A stretch of DNA of 40,000 nt from Cellvibrionaceae bacterium (lineage in GTDB: Bacteria > Pseudomonadota > Gammaproteobacteria > Pseudomonadales > Cellvibrionaceae): the NCBI GenBank assembly GCA_050289485.1, contig JBNKFV010000029.1, positions 21,810-61,809 on the forward strand. Reading direction: 5' to 3'. The position numbers were made by a program, and so were the translations under genes. Positions 14,722-22,261 of the stretch are shown piece after piece (position 1 is the stretch's first letter; the number at the start of each line of letters is the position of its first letter). The notes beneath the pieces are model-generated. The model did not search any database and was not told the DNA's origin. It was given only the letters and a program-made list of their open reading frames with translations.

Positions 14722-15660
14722 TCACTGAGTTCGTTTTGTTTGTTTCTGAATGTCAAGATCACTCATCAAGCGATTGCGGCCGCTCTCTTTGGCCAAATAC
14801 AGAAACCTATCCGCACGCTGAAGGGTTTCTTCTATATTGTTGTCTTCGGGCAGGGCGGCGGTTAGCCCAAGGCTTAGGGTAAGGTGTATGGGTTTGCCAT
14901 CGTGGCCCATAAAGGGGGTGTTGGCCACGGTATGGCGCAATCGTTCGGCGAATACCATGCCGCCTTCTACTGCTGTATCACTGCAGCACAACACAAACTC
15001 TTCGCCGCCAAAACGCGCAAAAATATCAGATTCACGTTTGTATTCCTGGCAGAGGTTACTGATTTCAGTCAGCACTTTGTCGCCAGACGCATGGCCATAT
15101 TGGTCATTAATACGTTTAAAGTGGTCAATATCAATCATCAGCAGGCACATTGGCCTGTCGTAGCGTTTGCTGCGCGCAAATTCGGCGTTGGCCAACTCAA
15201 AAAAATGCCTTCGGTTAAAGGCACCGGTAAGAGGGTCCTGTGCGGCCAGTGTTTTGAGCTGCTGATTAGTATCTTCCAGTTTTAGCTGCGATTCACGTAG
15301 CCGCAGGGCAGAGCGCACACGGGCTGCCAATATGGGATAAACAAAGGGTTTGGATACGTAGTCGTGTGCACCAAGATCCAGCGCCTCAACAATATCTTTC
15401 GTATCCTCGTTGGCAGAAACCATGATCACGGGAATGTCAGTATAAGCGGGGTTAGCGCGAATTTGCTTGAGGGTTTGTATGCCGTTCATTATCGGCATAA
15501 ACAGGTCTAACAGCACCAGGTCGGGTTGATGCTGCTCAATGGCCTTAAGGCATTGCTCACCGTTTTGTGCTGTATATACTTCGTAGCCTTCATCTTCCAG
15601 CTCAAAACTCAGTAGCTGCAGGTTATCTGCGATGTCGTCGACAATGAGTATTTTGGCCAT
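14722..15660 (-). CDS. Response regulator with GGDEF output (PleD/WspR-like diguanylate cyclase)
   Basis: N-terminal receiver (KILIVDD..DLVLLDLFMPIMNG..DYVSKP). C-terminal RFGGEEF with RESD (RxxD I-site) 5 residues upstream. Confidence 0.9.
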   Translation of the reverse strand: MAKILIVDDIADNLQLLSFELEDEGYEVYTAQNGEQCLKAIEQHQPDLVLLDLFMPIMNGIQTLKQIRANPAYTDIPVIMVSANEDTKDIVEALDLGAHDYVSKPFVYPILAARVRSALRLRESQLKLEDTNQQLKTLAAQDPLTGAFNRRHFFELANAEFARSKRYDRPMCLLMIDIDHFKRINDQYGHASGDKVLTEISNLCQEYKRESDIFARFGGEEFVLCCSDTAVEGGMVFAERLRHTVANTPFMGHDGKPIHLTLSLGLTAALPEDNNIEETLQRADRFLYLAKESGRNRLMSDLDIQKQTKRTQ

Positions 15661-15738
15661 ACGGTAGTCACGTTGCCCCGTGGTCAGTTAATAAAATGAG
15701 AGCCCTACCGTCACGCCTTGTTGGGATGATGGCGCCAT

Positions 15739-16155
15739 CTACCACCGGAATTTACCCCAGTTCTCCGGATTCGCCCAATTTTTAGGGTTATTCCAAGTAC
15801 GCTTAAAATTATAGCTGGCTAAATTGTATTGGTAACTGTGCAATTTTTCGTGTTGTAACAGGGTGTTGTCGCGCTGAAACCCCAAACCGATCAGCTCGTT
15901 CGAGTGCCAGCAATCATCGGCTACCAACAACCATATTTGCGGAGACAGCAAATTACGAATGTATCCCAGCAGCTCTGCGCCTTCTCGCTTGGTCATATGC
16001 TCAAGGCTGTCAACAACCACAGCAAGGTCAAAGGTTTGGTTCAGATGCCGGGTTTCTTCTGGGGTGCACTGAGTGAGGCCAGCAGGCGCGTCCGGTAAGT
16101 TTACGGGCTGGCTTGTGCACAGCAGCCAAGAACCGGGGTTGACGGCATCAATCAA
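15739..16155 (-). CDS. Hypothetical protein (possible truncated methyltransferase-like fold)
   Basis: 138-aa ORF with a TTG start and a W/N-rich C-terminus (WNNPKNWANPENWGKFRW). I recognise no confident family. Confidence 0.45.
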   Translation of the reverse strand: MIDAVNPGSWLLCTSQPVNLPDAPAGLTQCTPEETRHLNQTFDLAVVVDSLEHMTKREGAELLGYIRNLLSPQIWLLVADDCWHSNELIGLGFQRDNTLLQHEKLHSYQYNLASYNFKRTWNNPKNWANPENWGKFRW

Positions 16156-16439
16156 CGTACTGAGAGCGCAAAGCAGCGACTTGTCGGAAGGCGATGTATT
16201 AATGGGATTACCTTTTTATAAACGGCTGTAAGTGTTTGTGAAGTCTAGCAAATACCGAGTAAATAGACAGGTGGTGTGTGCACTGCAACAATGCTCACAA
16301 AAATGAGGCCAATAAGGTACGTTTGGTATTGGGTAAGAATAGACAGAAAACCGAACCGCGAGCAATAACGCCTCCCGTTATCAAAACCATAATCAGCCTA
16401 AGCCTTGATGGCAGGGTGCTAGAATCATTTTTAGATAAC

Positions 16440-16974
16440 CTGTTTTTTATACACATATTTTTAAGGTGCAAAAAACGTGCTCATTTCTACCAAAATGGCG
16501 CCTGAAGTTTGCTCAATTTTTCGATTAGTGCTAAAAAGTAATCCTTACCTTTCAATGGGTTACCCAAACCCTTGCCCGAAATAGTGCGCAAAGGGAACCA
16601 GAAAAACGCGCACGCTCGTTTTTCCAGAACGAAGGAAATAGAAAACAAAGAAAGCCACCGCTGGATACAACATTAGTTGGCGTTTGCACACAATCACCAT
16701 GTTGACGCGACGGTTTCCGGACCGGCCTTGTACGGACGCGTTTTCAGACAAGGAGTGGACGATTCTTTGGCGAATAAAAAAGAAAGCATCCCCGCCGGCT
16801 ACTCCGCCCGGTTTACGCGAAGTTACGCGTATGTTGGCCGAGCTTGGAGGCTTTTTAGCGCGTAAGGGCGATGGTGAGCCTGGCGTCAAAACGATCTGGC
16901 AAGGGTATGATAAGCTGTTACATTATATTGAGGCTGCGGATATCTTGGGGTATAAAAATATGTATAAAACAGAG
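16440..16974 (+). mobile_element. Internally deleted IS4-family (Tn5/IS50-like) element with both terminal inverted repeats
   Basis: Left IR is CTGTTTTTTATACACATAT (16440-16458). Right IR (reverse complement of 16956-16974) is CTCTGTTTTATACATATTT. Both resemble the Tn5 end CTGTCTCTTATACACATCT. Only about 535 bp lie between the ends. The flanking 9-mers (TTAGATAAC and TGCGGGCGT) differ, so there is no target duplication. Confidence 0.7.
16684..16974 (+). pseudogene. C-terminal remnant of a Tn5-like IS4-family transposase
   Basis: The translation PDRPCTDAFSDKEWTILW...PPGLREVTRMLAELGGFLARKGDGEPGVKTIWQGYDKLLHY matches the conserved C-terminal roughly 90 aa of IS4/Tn5-type transposases. The N-terminal roughly 350 aa, including the DDE region, are absent. 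Confidence 0.75.
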
Positions 16975-16994
16975 TGCGGGCGTTACATGTGCGA

Positions 16995-17669
16995 ATGAAA
17001 ATCATCTTACTTCCTGGGCTTGATGGTACGGGGGCGCTTTTCGATGCCTTAGTAAATAACTTACGAGAAGGCGTTGATACGGAGGTTTTGACCTATGAAA
17101 AAATTGATAGTCTTACGTACACTGATCAGGCAGAGGAAATAGGTCATAGAATAAAAGATACGGATGTTGTCTTGGTCGGAGAATCCTATTCAGGACGAGT
17201 AGTCTACGAGCTGAACCAAATTTTGGGGGAAAGAGTGAAAGCAGTTGTATTTATAGCTAGTTTTATTTCGTGTCCGTCAAAGGTAGCTAAGCTTGCTGGT
17301 TACATTCCTATTGGGCTATTAAAGCCAAATTTTATTAACAAAAGCCTGTTAAATATATTCGGGTTTAATCGTCAAGCAACACCTACACTAATTGATAGTG
17401 TGTTTTCCTCTATAAGTTCGGCTAATAAACAAAAATTAAAAGCTAGGCTGAAAAATATTTCAGGCCTTACTAAATCGCAAGTAAAGATATATAGTCCAGT
17501 AACTTATATACGTCCAAACCGTGACCTACTAGTAGGTCGTGGCTCGGTAGAACATATTAAGTCTTTATGCGTTAATTTCAAAGAAGTTACGGTATCTGGC
17601 GGTCATTTTATAGCTCAATCGGAGCCAGAAGAATGTGCAAAGGTAATTTTAAATGCAGCAAGCATGTAA
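16995..17669 (+). CDS. Alpha/beta-hydrolase fold protein (cassette 1)
   Basis: MKIILLPGLDGTG N-terminus and the nucleophile-elbow-like VLVGESYSGRV. The ATG at 16995 overlaps the read-through stop of the transposase remnant. The gene is visibly AT-richer than its surroundings. Confidence 0.75.
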   Translation: MKIILLPGLDGTGALFDALVNNLREGVDTEVLTYEKIDSLTYTDQAEEIGHRIKDTDVVLVGESYSGRVVYELNQILGERVKAVVFIASFISCPSKVAKLAGYIPIGLLKPNFINKSLLNIFGFNRQATPTLIDSVFSSISSANKQKLKARLKNISGLTKSQVKIYSPVTYIRPNRDLLVGRGSVEHIKSLCVNFKEVTVSGGHFIAQSEPEECAKVILNAASM

Positions 17670-17756
17670 CAAAACAATCAACCGGACTCCGCTAAGCGTG
17701 GTTCGCTTCGCTCACAATACCACGCTTAGCTACGCTCGGTTATTGTGGCGTTAAGT
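17664..17756 (+). repeat. attC-like recombination site 1
   Basis: It starts at the stop codon (TGTAACAAAAC) and ends in GTTAAGT, which fits the GTTRRRY core. The outer arms ACAATCAACCG / CGGTTATTGT pair with one unpaired base. The inner arms GCTAAGCGTGGT / ACCACGCTTAGC (17691-17702 / 17719-17730) are a perfect 12 bp. Confidence 0.6.
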
Positions 17757-17774
17757 GTTTTCAGGGAGGAAACT

Positions 17775-18272
17775 GTGAGTAAGTATCAAATTGCCCAGCT
17801 CAACATTGCCACACTAATGGCTCCAATCGATTCGCCTCAGCTTTCAGATTTCGTCGCGAATCTGGAGAGGATTAACGCGTTGGCTGAGGACTCGCCTGGT
17901 TTCGTCTGGCGCTTGCAAACCGACGAAGGTGATGCCACCGGCATTGATTATTTTGGCTCCGATAAGATCGTGAATCTTTCTCTCTGGGATTCGGTCGAGG
18001 CTTTGCATAATTACGTTTATCGGTCTGCCCACGTCGAGATCATGCGTCGCAAGAAGGAGTGGTTCCACAAAATGGGAGAGGCATACATGGTTCTTTGGTG
18101 GGTGCCTGCCGGTCACATTCCCTCAGTCGAAGAAGCGGCGCAAAAGCTAATCATCCTGCGAGAGCACGGACCAACCGCCGAAGCTTTCACGTTCAAAAAA
18201 GCCTTCTCAGCTCCCAGTGAATTCGACGGTGTGCCAAACGATACTTTGGGTGGTGAATGTCCCGCCACTTAA
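17775..18272 (+). CDS. DUF3291-family protein (cassette 2)
   Basis: GTG at 17775 is preceded by GGGAGG. The sequence SKYQIAQLNIATLMAPIDSPQLSDFVANLERINALAEDSPGFVWRLQ matches my memory of the DUF3291 family. Confidence 0.75.
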   Translation: MSKYQIAQLNIATLMAPIDSPQLSDFVANLERINALAEDSPGFVWRLQTDEGDATGIDYFGSDKIVNLSLWDSVEALHNYVYRSAHVEIMRRKKEWFHKMGEAYMVLWWVPAGHIPSVEEAAQKLIILREHGPTAEAFTFKKAFSAPSEFDGVPNDTLGGECPAT

Positions 18273-18346
18273 CAAATCAATTAAGTTCGTTCCGGCCTAC
18301 GGCCTCCACCGGACGGCCCTGTCGGGCCGCCGCTTATTTTCGGCGT
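18268..18346 (+). repeat. attC-like / terminator-like structured element 2, interrupted at its 3' side by the intron
   Basis: It begins ACTTAACAAATC, where ACTTAAC is a perfect RYYYAAC. It contains the hairpin CGGACGGCCC-tgtc-GGGCCGCCG followed by CTTATTTT. A possible displaced core, ATTAGGC, lies at 19788-19794 just after the intron. The assignment as attC is uncertain. Confidence 0.35.
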
Positions 18347-19783
18347 GTGTGCCAGACATGGCATTTAACTAGAGAGGTGCAAGTCCTCTTACCAGGTATT
18401 CGCAGAGCCGAAGGTTAGCCAAAGGGCAAGGTTATTGCCGCGAGGTAATGGCTGAACCGAATCAAACCTCCTTGTTAATGCAACGTATCGTAGAAAGGAC
18501 AAACCTACAACGAGCATTAAAACAAGTTCAACGCAATAAAGGCGCCCCCGGTGTTGACGGTATGACGGTAAGCCAATTACCGAACTACCTAAAACAACAC
18601 TGGCCGCAACTGCGCGAGCAACTGGTTACGGGACGATACAAACCGCAACCGGTGAAACGCGTAGAAATTCCTAAAGCCAACGGCAAAATGCGTAAACTCG
18701 GGATACCTGCTGTGGTAGATCGATTTATACAGCAAGCCATCGCACAAGTACTCAGCGGGCACTGGGAAACCGTATTCCACCCGAACAGCTTTGGGTTTCA
18801 TCCCAACAAATCAGCACACCAAGCGATTCGAAGCGTGCAGCACTTTGCACGAGACGGGTATCGCATCGTGGTTGATCTGGATCTGGCGAGCTTCTTTGAC
18901 GAAGTGAACCACGATCGTTTAATGGCGACGCTCAAACGCACACACCCGGAAAACGATGTTCTACGGTTAATCAACCGTTACCTGAAAGCGCCAGTGCAAA
19001 TGCGCGATCAGAACGTAGCATCAACAAAAGGTGTCCCACAAGGTGGACCGCTATCCCCGTTGCTTGCCAATATTGTGCTTAACGAACTGGACTGGGAATT
19101 AGAGCAGCGACAGCTACGATTCGCACGCTACGCCGATGACTGCCAAATACTGGTGGGTAGTTATCGCGCTGGCGAACGTATCATGGCAAGCCTGACGCGC
19201 TTTATCGAGAAAACACTGAAGCTCAAAGTGAACGACGAGAAAAGCGCGGTGGCGGCGGTACATAAGCGAAACTTTCTGGGTTTTACGCTGGCCCGCAAGG
19301 ATAAGCGGATAAAAGTCAGCAAACAATCCCTCGCGAAATTGAAGGCAACGGTGCGTACTGTCACCCGCCGAACACGAGGCCATTCGTTTCAACACATCCT
19401 TGACGAGTTAAAGAAAAGCCTGCTTGGTTGGAAAGCGTACTTTGACATCAGCGAAGTACTGAGCCCTCTGAAAGATATGGACAAATGGATTCGGCGTAAA
19501 TTGCGGTGCTATCTATGGAAGCAGTGGGGAAGATCGGGCTATCGACGTTTAAGACGGTTAGGTGTTGATAGGCTGCTGGCCTGGAACACGGCTAAATCGG
19601 CCCACGGTCCTTGGCGTCTGAGCAAAAGCCCCGCGCTTTACTACGCGCTACCAAACAGATACTTTAGGAACTTGGGGCTGCCTGAATTGGCGACAAGGAC
19701 AAATTGATGATTTGAACCGCCGTGGTACGTGACCCGTATGCCCGGTGATGTGGGAGGAGAGGTGTCGTGAGGTGCCTCCCTAT
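18347..19783 (+). mobile_element. Group IIC intron (apparently with a truncated 5' ribozyme portion)
   Basis: The 5' end GUGUGCCAGACAUGG...GGUGCAAGUCC resembles the Oceanobacillus iheyensis IIC intron 5' end (GUGUGCCCGGCAUGG...GGUGAGAGUCC, recalled from memory). The 3' end GAACCGCCGUGGUACGUGACCCGUAUGCCCGGUGAUGUG is domain V-like with a CGC triad. It is followed by the domain VI hairpin GGGAGG..CCUCCCUAU. The element encloses an RT/maturase ORF. Confidence 0.75.
18448..19707 (+). CDS. Group II intron reverse transcriptase/maturase (no endonuclease domain)
   Basis: RT blocks: RNKGAPGVDGMT, RKLGIPAVVDRFIQQA, SFGFHPNKSAHQA, DLDLASFFDEVNHD, GVPQGGPLSPLLANIVLNELD, RYADDCQILV. The maturase X region is LLGWKAYFDIS..WIRRKLRCYLWKQW. 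The 419-aa size fits class C. Confidence 0.92.
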   Translation: MAEPNQTSLLMQRIVERTNLQRALKQVQRNKGAPGVDGMTVSQLPNYLKQHWPQLREQLVTGRYKPQPVKRVEIPKANGKMRKLGIPAVVDRFIQQAIAQVLSGHWETVFHPNSFGFHPNKSAHQAIRSVQHFARDGYRIVVDLDLASFFDEVNHDRLMATLKRTHPENDVLRLINRYLKAPVQMRDQNVASTKGVPQGGPLSPLLANIVLNELDWELEQRQLRFARYADDCQILVGSYRAGERIMASLTRFIEKTLKLKVNDEKSAVAAVHKRNFLGFTLARKDKRIKVSKQSLAKLKATVRTVTRRTRGHSFQHILDELKKSLLGWKAYFDISEVLSPLKDMDKWIRRKLRCYLWKQWGRSGYRRLRRLGVDRLLAWNTAKSAHGPWRLSKSPALYYALPNRYFRNLGLPELATRTN

Positions 19784-19813
19784 CCCGATTAGGCAGACAA
19801 AAGGAGAATCAGG

Positions 19814-20215
19814 ATGGCTTTGCCAATCACTTCATTACTAACGGGCATCTTTATGTTACTTATGGTGCCTTTGAGTCTTCAAATCTCGATAAGCCGCGCA
19901 GAGATCGGCGGTATGTCTGGTGGTCTCACATTTGGCGATGGTGGGGATGAATCTCTGCGCCGCAAGATCAGGGCACATGGCAATTTCATCGAGTACGCTC
20001 CCGCGGCACTTATTGCACTCGGTCTCGTTGAATACGGCGGAGGAGAGAAAACTCTCGTGATCGGTTTTGCTGGTGCTTTCCTTATCAGTAGGCTGATGCA
20101 TGCAGGTGGAATGCTCTACACCTCCACACCGCTCCTTCGTGGTATAGGCATGCTCATACAGCACGTCGCTTTTATTATCGCTGGCGGTTGGCTTGTACAG
20201 CAAGTGGCTGCGTAA
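19814..20215 (+). CDS. MAPEG-family inner membrane protein (YecN-like; cassette 3)
   Basis: FGDGGDESLRRKIRAHGNFIEYAPAALIALGLVEYGG closely parallels E. coli YecN (YGDGGFSELQSAIRIHGNAVEYIPIAI..., from memory). An AGGAG SD lies 8 nt upstream. Confidence 0.75.
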   Translation: MALPITSLLTGIFMLLMVPLSLQISISRAEIGGMSGGLTFGDGGDESLRRKIRAHGNFIEYAPAALIALGLVEYGGGEKTLVIGFAGAFLISRLMHAGGMLYTSTPLLRGIGMLIQHVAFIIAGGWLVQQVAA

Positions 20216-20295
20216 CAAAGCCAAGCACAATTCATGTTAAAAACACGCATGGGCTGGGCCTCGCTGACGCTCGGCATGTGTTGGCTGTGTTAGGC
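20210..20295 (+). repeat. attC-like recombination site 3
   Basis: TAACAAAGCCAAGCACAATTCATG pairs with CATGTGTTGGCTGTGTTAGGC, leaving unpaired G and ATT bases in the way attC extrahelical bases do. It ends in GTTAGGC, a perfect GTTRRRY, at 20289-20295. Confidence 0.55.
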
Positions 20296-20309
20296 TTTAC
20301 CGATGTTTG

Positions 20310-20340
20310 AAAAACCATACCACTTGTGTGGTATGGTTTT
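20310..20340. terminator. Bidirectional rho-independent terminator
   Basis: AAAAA-CCATACCAC-ttgt-GTGGTATGG-TTTT. It sits between the cassette array (+) and the esterase gene (-). Confidence 0.8.
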
Positions 20341-20356
20341 CGATGAGGCGGTTGAT

Positions 20357-22261
20357 TTACAACTTTTTGATCTGAAATGGCAGTGCTGGCAAACCTGCGT
20401 CGTTATATAGATTGATAAGGGGGAAGTCGGCCCAGGCATATTTCAGCGCAGAAGGATGCGTTACTTTATCGCTCCAGACCTGAACGGTTTTACCCGTAAT
20501 CTTGGCCTTGGCAACATGGAAAATTCCATCTGGTCCGGCAATGATAAAGCCTCTTACCATAGTGCCTTCCTTGAGTTTCAGTTGCTTGCCAGCGTGGTCA
20601 AATGTTACAGAGACAACCTTGCCCCTAATGCTATGTGACCGATATGTGGGCCCCTGGCTTGAAACCTTTTCGTGAAAGCTGACTCGCCGGGCTTCGCCCC
20701 AAAGCCTTGCCGCGACATCCTGTTTGTTAAGCGGATGGATATTGTCCTGCTCACCAATATCAATGGCAGTAGCCATACCAGTCTCGGGTAGCGACAGTGC
20801 CTGGGCCTGCATATCCCGCAACAGCGCCCATTGGCTGTCAGGCTGTAAATCCTGGGCCTGTAAAAAGCCTGCCAGTTGAACGAATAAAAAGCTGAAGTTG
20901 TCCCGCCATTGTGTACGCCAGTCCTGGATCAGCATCGTGAATAAATCACCGTATTGAGCTGCTTGCCCAGTGTTGCTTTCGCCCTGGTACCAAATAACAC
21001 CGCGTAAACCGTAACCCTGTATAGGACGAATCATGGCGTTATATAAAAAGGAAGGTGTCCATTCAAAGCGCGTCGTTTCAGGCAGGGGCGGTTCTACTGT
21101 ATTGTTGTATAGCCAGTCGTCACTCAAATCAATTTTTTGGTCGCCAGTTTGCAGATATACCTTCCCTTCTATCCCTGCCGAGGGTTGGTTGTCCCAGGAG
21201 TCCCCAACGCGAATGGTTATCAGGTTTTGGCCTTTCTTTAATATGCCTGGTGCAAGAACATGGCGTGAGCCATGTGTCTTCCAGTCTTCCTGAGCAATCA
21301 GCTTTTCGTTAACCCAGATGAACGCTTCCTGCGAGAGATCACCAAATTCCAATATGGCTTCGTCTTTGTTGGCTGAATCGAGAGTAACTTCACGCCGTAA
21401 CCAGGCCTCGTCATCAAATGTTGTAGTGTTTGGCAGACGTTGTTTGGTCCAACCGTCCACGGGATAGTCAAAGCGGTAAGCCCCCGTCTTAAGTGCATCT
21501 TCTTTACTATTCAAGCGGCGATAGAATTCTTCTGCATTCTTGTCGTTTTCAGCAAGTAAAGTAGGCCAGTCGATATCACCTTTGTACAGTTGTTCTGTTT
21601 TTTCTCGGTAGGCGGGAAGTTTGAGTAATGCGCCTTTACTGAGCCAGGCTTCAGCCGGTGTGCCACCCCAGTTGTCATCGATTATGCCGACTGCGACGCC
21701 TTTTTCCTGATGGTTTTTTAGCGCAAACAGATAGGCTATGGCTGAAAAGTTAGCGGCGCTTTCGGGTGTCGCCTGCAACCAATTTCCATCAGAGAGATCT
21801 TGTTTTGGGGTTTCTGAAATTTTATTTTCAACTTCGAAAAAACGAATTAGCGGATAGTTGGCCTGTTTGATAATTTGATCTGAATGGTTAATTCCCCAGC
21901 CGAGTTTTAACTCCATGTTAGATTGGCCACCCGCTAGCCAGACATCACCAAAATAAACGTCATTTATCGTAGCCTTGCCATCACCATTGAGTTCCAATGT
22001 GTAGGGTCCGCTGGCTTTTTGTGGGGCTATTTCTATACGCCACTTACCCGTGCCATCACTTTTTCCAGAGAAGGTATGTTTGTTAAATGTCAGAGAGATG
22101 GCTTTGTCAGGTGTAGACCAGCCCCAAATCTCTACGGTCTTGTCTCGCTGCAATACCATGTGGTCAGAAAATATTTTCGCTGGTTGTATATCCGCTCGAG
22201 ATATACAGGCAAAGGGGATAAGAAGAGCACCCAAAATATACCGTTGAAAATGCACGCGCAC
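20357..22261 (-). CDS. Secreted sialate-O-acetylesterase-like (SASA/DUF303) carbohydrate acetylesterase
   Basis: GTG start with an AAGGAG SD. Signal peptide ILGALLIPFACISRA. SASA-type motif GDVWLAGGQSNME and the later GVIWYQGESN. Confidence 0.8.
   Translation of the reverse strand: MRVHFQRYILGALLIPFACISRADIQPAKIFSDHMVLQRDKTVEIWGWSTPDKAISLTFNKHTFSGKSDGTGKWRIEIAPQKASGPYTLELNGDGKATINDVYFGDVWLAGGQSNMELKLGWGINHSDQIIKQANYPLIRFFEVENKISETPKQDLSDGNWLQATPESAANFSAIAYLFALKNHQEKGVAVGIIDDNWGGTPAEAWLSKGALLKLPAYREKTEQLYKGDIDWPTLLAENDKNAEEFYRRLNSKEDALKTGAYRFDYPVDGWTKQRLPNTTTFDDEAWLRREVTLDSANKDEAILEFGDLSQEAFIWVNEKLIAQEDWKTHGSRHVLAPGILKKGQNLITIRVGDSWDNQPSAGIEGKVYLQTGDQKIDLSDDWLYNNTVEPPLPETTRFEWTPSFLYNAMIRPIQGYGLRGVIWYQGESNTGQAAQYGDLFTMLIQDWRTQWRDNFSFLFVQLAGFLQAQDLQPDSQWALLRDMQAQALSLPETGMATAIDIGEQDNIHPLNKQDVAARLWGEARRVSFHEKVSSQGPTYRSHSIRGKVVSVTFDHAGKQLKLKEGTMVRGFIIAGPDGIFHVAKAKITGKTVQVWSDKVTHPSALKYAWADFPLINLYNDAGLPALPFQIKKL

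Follow-up and report, generated by a model that had tools for sequence, protein, structure and literature searches.

The stretch of DNA analyzed here (the window: 40,000 nt from a Cellvibrionaceae bacterium, positions 21,810 to 61,809 of contig JBNKFV010000029.1 in assembly GCA_050289485.1) carries at its positions 16975-20295 an array of three gene cassettes with attC sites. The array is a cluster of attC sites lacking an integron integrase (CALIN), a known kind of element, in a genome that bears an integron elsewhere. Its three cassette open reading frames (ORFs) are located on the plus strand and each ends in TAACAAA (17667-17673, 18270-18276 and 20213-20219), with the stop codon placed inside an RYYYAAC-like box. 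A fourth plus-strand ORF (18448-19707), between cassettes 2 and 3, encodes the reverse transcriptase (RT)/maturase of a group II intron. On its left the array adjoins the remnant of an IS4-family insertion sequence (IS; 16641-16974), which is preceded by a truncated copy of an integron leader (16440-16640).

Cassette 1 (16983-17750, plus strand) contains an AT-rich ORF of 224 aa (16995-17669) without a Shine-Dalgarno sequence. Its GC content is 39.7% (29% at third codon positions) compared to ~51% in the other cassettes. The product has a weak match to the alpha/beta-hydrolase fold, and the matches to Abhydrolase_1 and Abhydrolase_6 fall under the curated Pfam cut-offs. Cassette 2 (17751-18345, plus strand) carries a DUF3291 gene (17775-18272; Pfam 207.7 bits) with a GTG start codon and a GGGAGG Shine-Dalgarno sequence. 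Cassette 3 (19790-20289, formally plus T18346; plus strand) encodes a MAPEG membrane protein of 133 aa (19814-20215; Pfam 71.3 bits) behind an AAGGAG Shine-Dalgarno sequence. As in gene cassettes generally, all ORFs share one orientation; their 5′ leaders measure 11-23 nt. The three ORFs ending in TAACAAA and the higher AT content of the hydrolase gene had already been described in an initial annotation made from the sequence; of the gene identities given there, DUF3291 and MAPEG are firm but the hydrolase call is weak.

The attC sites of the array

On its bottom strand, an attC site forms a hairpin that contains R and L boxes as well as extrahelical bases; the integron integrase IntI recognizes this hairpin and cuts between the G and the TT of the core. 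In the window, attC1 (17664-17756, plus strand, 93 nt) consists of R'' ATGTAAC, L'' CAAT[c]AACCG, L' CGGTTATTG and R' GTTAAGT (17750-17756). The last site of the array, attC3 (20210-20295, plus strand, 86 nt), reads R'' GCGTAAC, L'' CCAA[g]CACA, L' TGTGTTGG and R' GTTAGGC (20289-20295). The site between them is interrupted: the 5′ part of attC2 (18267-18346, plus strand, 80 nt) comprises R'' ACTTAAC, an A/T-rich L box, a spacer and the GT of the R' core, and its last 5 nt (TAGGC) follow at 19790-19794 behind a group II intron of 1443 nt, giving a site of 85 nt when spliced. All three sites have AAC in R'' and GTT in R' and lie within a total length of ~55-150 nt, attC2 once spliced. The palindromes of about 85-93 bp proposed initially are therefore found as contiguous sequences at attC1 and attC3, but not at attC2. 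Their outer arms, from TAAC to GTTAAGT or GTTAGGC, are attC R boxes, and the unpaired bases noted on one arm correspond to extrahelical bases in bottom-strand folds (G in attC1, C in attC3).

Four independent lines identify the three palindromes, on the basis of their sequence, as attC sites. The first is the cassette signature. The six bases past the core G (TTRRRY) belong to the next cassette and should complement the R'' of that cassette. Cassette 1 starts with TTACAT (16983-16988), the exact complement of its own R'' ATGTAA; the start of cassette 2, TTAAGT, is fully complementary to its R'' ACTTAA; and the start of cassette 3, TTAGGC, is complementary to its R'' GCGTAA with the exception of one mismatch.

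The second line is family likeness, as the window sites match the attC family next to the integrase gene of this genome (TAACAA...GGCGTTA build). Moreover, attC3 resembles the truncated attC that ends contig C32, on which this gene is encoded (76% identity over 84 nt), and the inner arms of spliced attC2 resemble the attC sites at C1:138197 and C18:48985. Overall, attC lengths in this genome are heterogeneous, ranging from 48 to 141 nt.

Third, the sites are recovered by models built without the window. The check by an attC covariance model suggested in the initial annotation was carried out with a surrogate, R2, built on a full-length alignment of 34 attC sites from this genome, all outside the window. 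When R2 was searched against the 40-kb window (both strands, filters off), attC1 (35 bits, E 3.7e-6) ranked first and attC3 (15.4 bits, E 0.15) second, both with exact ends; the third-best match reached only 9.8 bits. A custom leave-window-out scorer, which combines R-box and spacer weight matrices from 32 non-window sites with L-box pairing that includes one bulge, gave 36.4 bits for attC1, 24.5 for attC3 and 22.4 for spliced attC2. The maximum in the shuffled whole genome was 20.7 bits, and the rest of the window never exceeded 13.2 bits. A 47-column 'mini-attC' covariance model (R1) found no real site because it cannot span the central loop of 30-100 nt, which is a failure of the method and not counter-evidence.

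Folding provides the fourth line. In the bottom-strand fold of attC1 (-19.7 kcal/mol, z -4.5), an R box of 5 bp is separated by a 2-nt spacer from an L box of 5+5 bp, in which a G is extrahelical. The fold of attC3 follows the same plan, with an L box of 6 bp, a bulged C and 4 bp. attC2 is the weakest of the three and pairs weakly (six A/T pairs, one bulge).

The inner stem of attC2, followed by TTATTTT, scores as terminator-like, which would fit a reading of the palindromes as repetitive extragenic palindromic (REP)-like or terminator elements behind ordinary genes with a coincidental likeness to attC. Such elements would leave the complementarity of cassette starts and R'' boxes without explanation, however, and sites of the same family occur beside intI and in dense arrays, with L-box pairs that covary strongly in the attC set (a signal to which selection bias applies). 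Genome-wide, R2 yielded 42 matches at E ≤0.01, 10 of them absent from the training set. All 42 lie in clusters or arrays rather than being spread behind core genes, as would be expected of the species-wide elements that the initial annotation had considered as an alternative. We regard the chance of a coincidental likeness as negligible.

Genome context and the left edge of the array

As stated in the initial annotation, no intI gene is present in the window. The sole integron integrase gene of the genome is located at C32:140555-141502 (TIGR02249 443 bits, cut-off 265). It has a LexA box in front and is followed by a cassette array, and the contig ends inside the attC3-like site. Searches by tblastn with the IntI proteins of this genome and of its congener G001 found no intI remnants elsewhere in the genome, nor beside any of the leader copies described below. 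About 42-50 attC sites in at least eight clusters are distributed over the genome.

CALIN were defined with IntegronFinder as attC clusters that lack an integron integrase (Cury et al. 2016, PMC4889954). In the window, attC1 and attC3 are 2.5 kb apart (limit 4 kb) and there is no intI within 4 kb. The locus is not a complete integron either, as it has no intI and its leader stops before the attI core. The initial reading of a CALIN-type array bounded by an IS remnant and a terminator was thus right, with the addition that the genome itself is not free of integrase. The accompanying statement that no attI is visible holds for the attI core, but left of the IS remnant two-thirds of an attI-bearing leader, the upstream part, are preserved. 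According to the same survey, half of all CALIN occur in genomes that encode IntI and 38% have an IS beside them; integration at secondary sites is a recognized route to CALIN, and splitting of integrons by IS has been proposed as another (PMC4889954).

The latter route, or a fragmented assembly, would make the array a split-off piece of the main chromosomal integron rather than an independent integrase-less element. The main array is indeed broken at contig ends (C1, C9, C10, C19, C23, the start of C29, C31 and C32). However, the window array is located 38.8 kb inside the 390-kb contig C29 with non-cassette genes on both sides, the closest further attC cluster lies at the contig start, at a distance of 36 kb, and the array has its own leader remnant. 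In addition, the left-flank genes, encoding a DEDDh exonuclease, a GGDEF response regulator and a DUF6231 protein, have the same order in G001. An origin as a split-off piece is therefore very unlikely.

To the right, a terminator hairpin plus T-run (20314-20345; terminator scan 20314-20332) lies between the array and a convergent gene for a SASA-type esterase (20357-22261, minus strand), outside any cassette; a transporter is also found on this side. An Rfam scan of 15500-21500 (E up to 1) revealed no intron or other family. Its sole match, to PrrB/RsmZ inside the esterase gene (21250-21376, minus strand; 17.7 bits, E 0.83), is weak and almost certainly due to chance.

The IS remnant at the left edge (16641-16974, plus strand) is Tn5/IS50-like. 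Its transposase ORF (16684-16998; domain to ~16942) represents the last ~90 codons with the C-terminal dimerization domain (Pfam Dimer_Tnp_Tn5, 57.8 bits), and the NCBIfam model transpos_IS4_3 is matched from position 321 to position 403 of its 405. The right terminal repeat extends from ~16950 to ~16972-16974. Directly behind it are the remains of a destroyed upstream attC (16975-16988, plus strand), namely its last seven nucleotides, TGCGGGC, followed by the core G/TTACAT (a slash marks the point of recombination or insertion) with which cassette 1 starts at 16983. The remnant is 73% identical to IS copies in genome G010. Five right ends of these copies (L044-L047 and L013) are followed by CAAAGGC, GCTTGGC, CAGTGGC, TGCAGGC or AGCGC and then by GTTA and differing cassette starts. 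Including the window, the IS right end is thus located 5-7 nt before the GTTA of an attC core in all six copies, with a different intervening sequence each time; one IS left end in G010 abuts a complete attC stem. No clean target duplications were found for the IS copies. Six seemingly independent insertions at one position of attC indicate that this IS4-family element appears to target attC sites, which we consider a strong lead and not a demonstration.

The leader copy in the window (16440-16640, plus strand) is truncated at its 3′ end and scores 169 bits (16445-16637) with an nhmmer profile of six full copies. A full leader of ~300 nt begins with a CTGT-N8-ACAG box, perfect in two copies, and continues with a conserved stretch that includes a hairpin. 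Its 3′ part consists of a strong Shine-Dalgarno sequence, an ORF of ~29 codons, two GCGCATGCGC palindromes and an attI-like ATTAA-N4-5-G/TTARRY. Coding by the small ORF is doubtful, as it is frameshifted in one copy. What is left in the window is a degenerate, LexA-box-like CTGT-N8-ACAG (16440-16456), followed by conserved non-coding sequence and the hairpin GAAAAACG..CGTTTTTC. The copy breaks off at the Shine-Dalgarno sequence, where the IS remnant begins, so that the small ORF and the attI core are gone. The leader was also considered as a structured RNA and rejected, as RNAalifold gave no covariation support (term +1.45; 4 of 50 pairs compensatory).

With the six-copy profile, nine leader copies were detected in this genome, none of them with an intI gene: the window copy, C5:126576-126878, C9:41359-41662, C10:4170-4473 and C18:54655-54957, as well as four further copies on C29 (181248-181366, 359458-359702, 369509-369791 and 384216-384519). 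In five of the six complete leaders the six bases after the G of the attI-like core complement the R'' of the first downstream attC, a hallmark of insertion by attI x attC recombination. The congener G001 has one intI and six leaders, five of them without intI. Its remaining leader (L014, G001:C38, 6934-7237) exactly fills the space from the start of intI to the first cassette of an array of 13 sites, which makes it the promoter and attI spacer of the integron. As a neighboring gene is syntenic, the intI of our genome is the positional ortholog of that in G001. Its own spacer (C32:141515-141840) differs in sequence from the leader and shares its layout, with a LexA box, two palindromes (ACGTCAC..GTGACGT) and the core ..AAGCTG/TTATGC. 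The orphan leader at C29:359458 and a leader at G001:C35 are flanked by the same GTPase gene; this copy therefore predates the two species.

The leader also bears on the question whether the array ever had an attI. If the cassettes had been inserted singly at a secondary (non-att) site by an integrase acting in trans, the leader fragment would be unrelated neighboring DNA. This is a recognized route to CALIN (PMC4889954), and the attI core is absent from the window. Against it speaks the leader fragment, which is correctly oriented at a distance of 340 nt upstream; at five other places in the genome, moreover, a full leader stands at the head of a cassette array and shows the attI x attC junction signature. 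Furthermore, the TGCGGGC-G before cassette 1 looks like the end of an attC and not like a random site. We thus consider secondary-site insertion unlikely.

The 5′ end of the leader fragment allows for another reading. Its LexA-box-like motif (CTGTTTTTTATACACAT, 16440-16458) closely resembles the terminal repeat of the IS (CTGTTTTATACAT, 16950-16974), so that 16440-16974 as a whole could be a two-ended mini-IS. However, 16445-16637 is homologous to the eight other leader copies, which are free of IS, and at most the first ~24 nt could double as an IS end. We leave a small residual chance to this reading and treat the fragment as a leader below.

Relatives carry arrays of 13-14 attC sites of the same family within 6-10 kb (G001 and G004). 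An attC in the 14-site array of G004, which belongs to another genus, is 97% identical to attC1 over 87 nt (L015, G004:C4, 3811-3903) and has a different gene upstream. Near-identical attC sites are thus shared across genera of the family.

The group II intron in attC2

The intron (18347-19789, 1443 nt, plus strand, in the orientation of the cassettes) has GTGTG...GAT ends and contains the RT/maturase ORF mentioned above. Its excision joins ...TTTTCGGCGT to TAGGC and restores the core GTTAGGC, which places the insertion at GT/TAGGC. The intron-encoded protein of 419 aa retains the YADD motif and matches TIGR04416 (402 bits, cut-off 300) as well as the Pfam families RVT_1 and GIIM, and has no endonuclease domain. 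GUGYG/AY boundaries, domains (D) 5 and 6 and a position just past the attC stem-loop assign the intron to class C; the D5/D6 hairpins are conserved, with eight compensatory pairs.

Compared to its closest relatives, which measure 1838-1844 nt, the intron is shortened by one continuous alignment gap of ~400 nt (positions ~111-519). Only ~110 nt of D1 precede the ORF vs. ~495 nt in the relatives. The gap takes away D2, D3 and D4a entirely, the larger part of D1 and the ORF's first five codons, so a complete D1-D3 ribozyme is not present. The junction of the deletion lies at a TGAA microhomology, and the reading frame now starts with an ATG that stems from D1 sequence. Because of this deletion the Rfam models RF02001 and RF01998 (D1-D4) have no match in the window intron, whereas five relatives match; RF00029 matched neither the window intron nor the relatives. 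As far as can be read from its sequence, the intron is therefore a defective derivative and not an active intron, with a dead ribozyme and an RT ORF that is still open.

We read 11 junctions of related introns at other loci (five genomes and two plasmids), among them those from G052 (five copies), G246, G207 (5′ junction only), C31:1-139 of our own genome and the plasmids pR148 and pPp47. Ten of the 11 show ..CGT/TAG.. in the R' box of an attC, i.e., an insertion between both T residues of the core on the cassette strand. The window intron is a member of a little-described lineage that enters the top strand of attC. The plasmid introns are located in class 1 integrons, after aadA1 in pR148 and after aac(6')-Ib4 in pPp47, with the junction ..CGT/TAGAT; their encoded proteins are 63-66% identical to that of the window intron, and the 3′ 80-84 nt of the introns are 90-95% identical.

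Two further observations concern this lineage. At C31:1-139 our genome contains a second member, of which only the 3′ end is in the assembly as the contig starts inside it (92% identity over 76 nt; GAT/TAGAAT in an attC core). In G052, four identical full-length introns are found within 35 kb (G052:C1:3655682-3690960; L048-L051). In each case the 5′ exon resembles attC and ends in CGT; the arrangement suggests that the intron is actively spreading within an array.

History of the array and comparison with known systems

Taken together, the stretch very probably represents the remains of a small satellite integron array of three promoterless cassettes in the same orientation, with attC sites of the family used by the cell's own chromosomal integron. 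It would once have been headed by an attI-bearing leader with a LexA box, of the type adjacent to intI in G001. The IS4-family element would then have entered an upstream attC, 7 nt ahead of its core, and a single deletion from the Shine-Dalgarno region of the leader into the interior of the IS would have removed the attI core, any earlier cassettes and the left 1.1 kb of the IS. Separately, a class C intron of the top-strand attC lineage would have inserted at GT/TA of attC2 and later lost its ribozyme core.

Several points weigh against this reconstruction. The covariance model supports attC3 only weakly (E 0.15), and the extrahelical base of this site is C where G is usual. The L box of attC2 is A/T-rich, and an unconstrained fold of attC2 forms no R and L boxes. 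No empty site was found in the genomes of relatives: G001 has other genes beside the shared left flank, its genome did not yield the right flank, and this only congener is too divergent (~65% nucleotide identity in the flanking genes) to show an empty site. The order of the IS, deletion and intron events is deduced from anatomy alone.

As a defective intron interrupts attC2, the array has two intact sites left, attC1 and attC3. Of the site upstream of cassette 1 only 7 nt and the core remain, and attC2 has only the GT of R' beside its stem, so neither should bind IntI productively. From attC biology, the sole integrase reaction left inside the array is predicted to be attC1 x attC3, mediated in trans by the IntI encoded on C32. 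It would excise 17751-20289 as one circle of 2539 bp carrying the DUF3291 gene, the dead intron with its RT gene and the MAPEG gene. Cassette 1 would be locked and could not leave alone, and the intron would have fused cassettes 2 and 3 into one unit. The intron is not expected to splice, and a read-through transcript would carry the RT ORF. Any rightward promoter that the leader may have had would now have the IS remnant between itself and the cassettes, of which the second and third carry Shine-Dalgarno sequences of their own.

As an ordinary CALIN, the array is of value mainly as a well-dissected example. It illustrates how an array may freeze: its platform was lost to an apparently attC-seeking IS and a deletion, and two of its cassettes were fused by an intron that seeks attC. 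As the intron lineage is also found on IncC and other plasmids, in clinical class 1 integrons, it links environmental chromosomal arrays to resistance integrons. If its target preference is confirmed, the IS4-family element would be the second, unrelated IS group that targets attC. The best lead, however, is offered by the integrase-less attI leaders, as CALIN surveys cannot detect attI outside classes 1-3. We put forward as a tentative possibility that the genus runs a distributed integron, in which orphan leaders are live platforms for insertion and expression, possibly under SOS control, served by one integrase in trans; the window CALIN would then be one satellite platform that has since been crippled. 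A genus with many CALIN that keep a recognizable attI would allow for a direct test of continued cassette capture.

Sedentary chromosomal integrons are known from marine Gammaproteobacteria, e.g., the superintegron of Vibrio cholerae. Our genome resembles them in that most cassettes have no known function, a LexA box is present in the promoter of intI and the relatives G001 and G004 carry the same attC family. In contrast, its attC sites of 48-141 nt do not form a uniform repeat, and the cassettes are scattered over many small arrays. For the IS, the closest parallel is the IS1111-attC group, whose members reportedly insert at a fixed position of attC sites (Tetu and Holmes 2008; Post and Hall 2009). 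Those elements belong to the IS110/IS1111 family, whereas the element described here is of the IS4 family, has Tn5-like ends and lies 5-7 nt before the R' core.

In line with CALIN described previously (PMC4889954), the window has at least two attC sites <4 kb apart, no intI nearby, an IS beside the array and an IntI encoded elsewhere in the genome. It differs from them in keeping a remnant of its own intI-attI leader and in that one attC is split by an intron, so that the array is only partly recombinable.

Previously described group IIC-attC introns run counter to the cassettes, having entered the bottom strand at TTGT/T (PMC3001079, PMC7923331). Like introns of the S.ma.I2 type (Leon et al. 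2010, PMC3001079), the window intron is of class C, encodes an RT and maturase without an endonuclease and is located just past the attC stem-loop within the conserved core. It does not belong to that lineage, as S.ma.I2-type introns use the R'' side of the bottom strand, whereas the window intron is inserted in the top strand at GT/TA of R' in cassette orientation and is ribozyme-dead. One precedent exists for insertion into the top strand: PMC7923331 describes an 'unusual' group IIC intron from Enterobacter cloacae (Rodriguez-Martinez et al. 2012); from this secondary description, identity of that intron with the window intron is not established. In contrast to the E. cloacae intron and those of pR148 and pPp47, the copy in the window lacks ~400 nt from D1 to D3 and resides in a chromosomal CALIN of an environmental bacterium.

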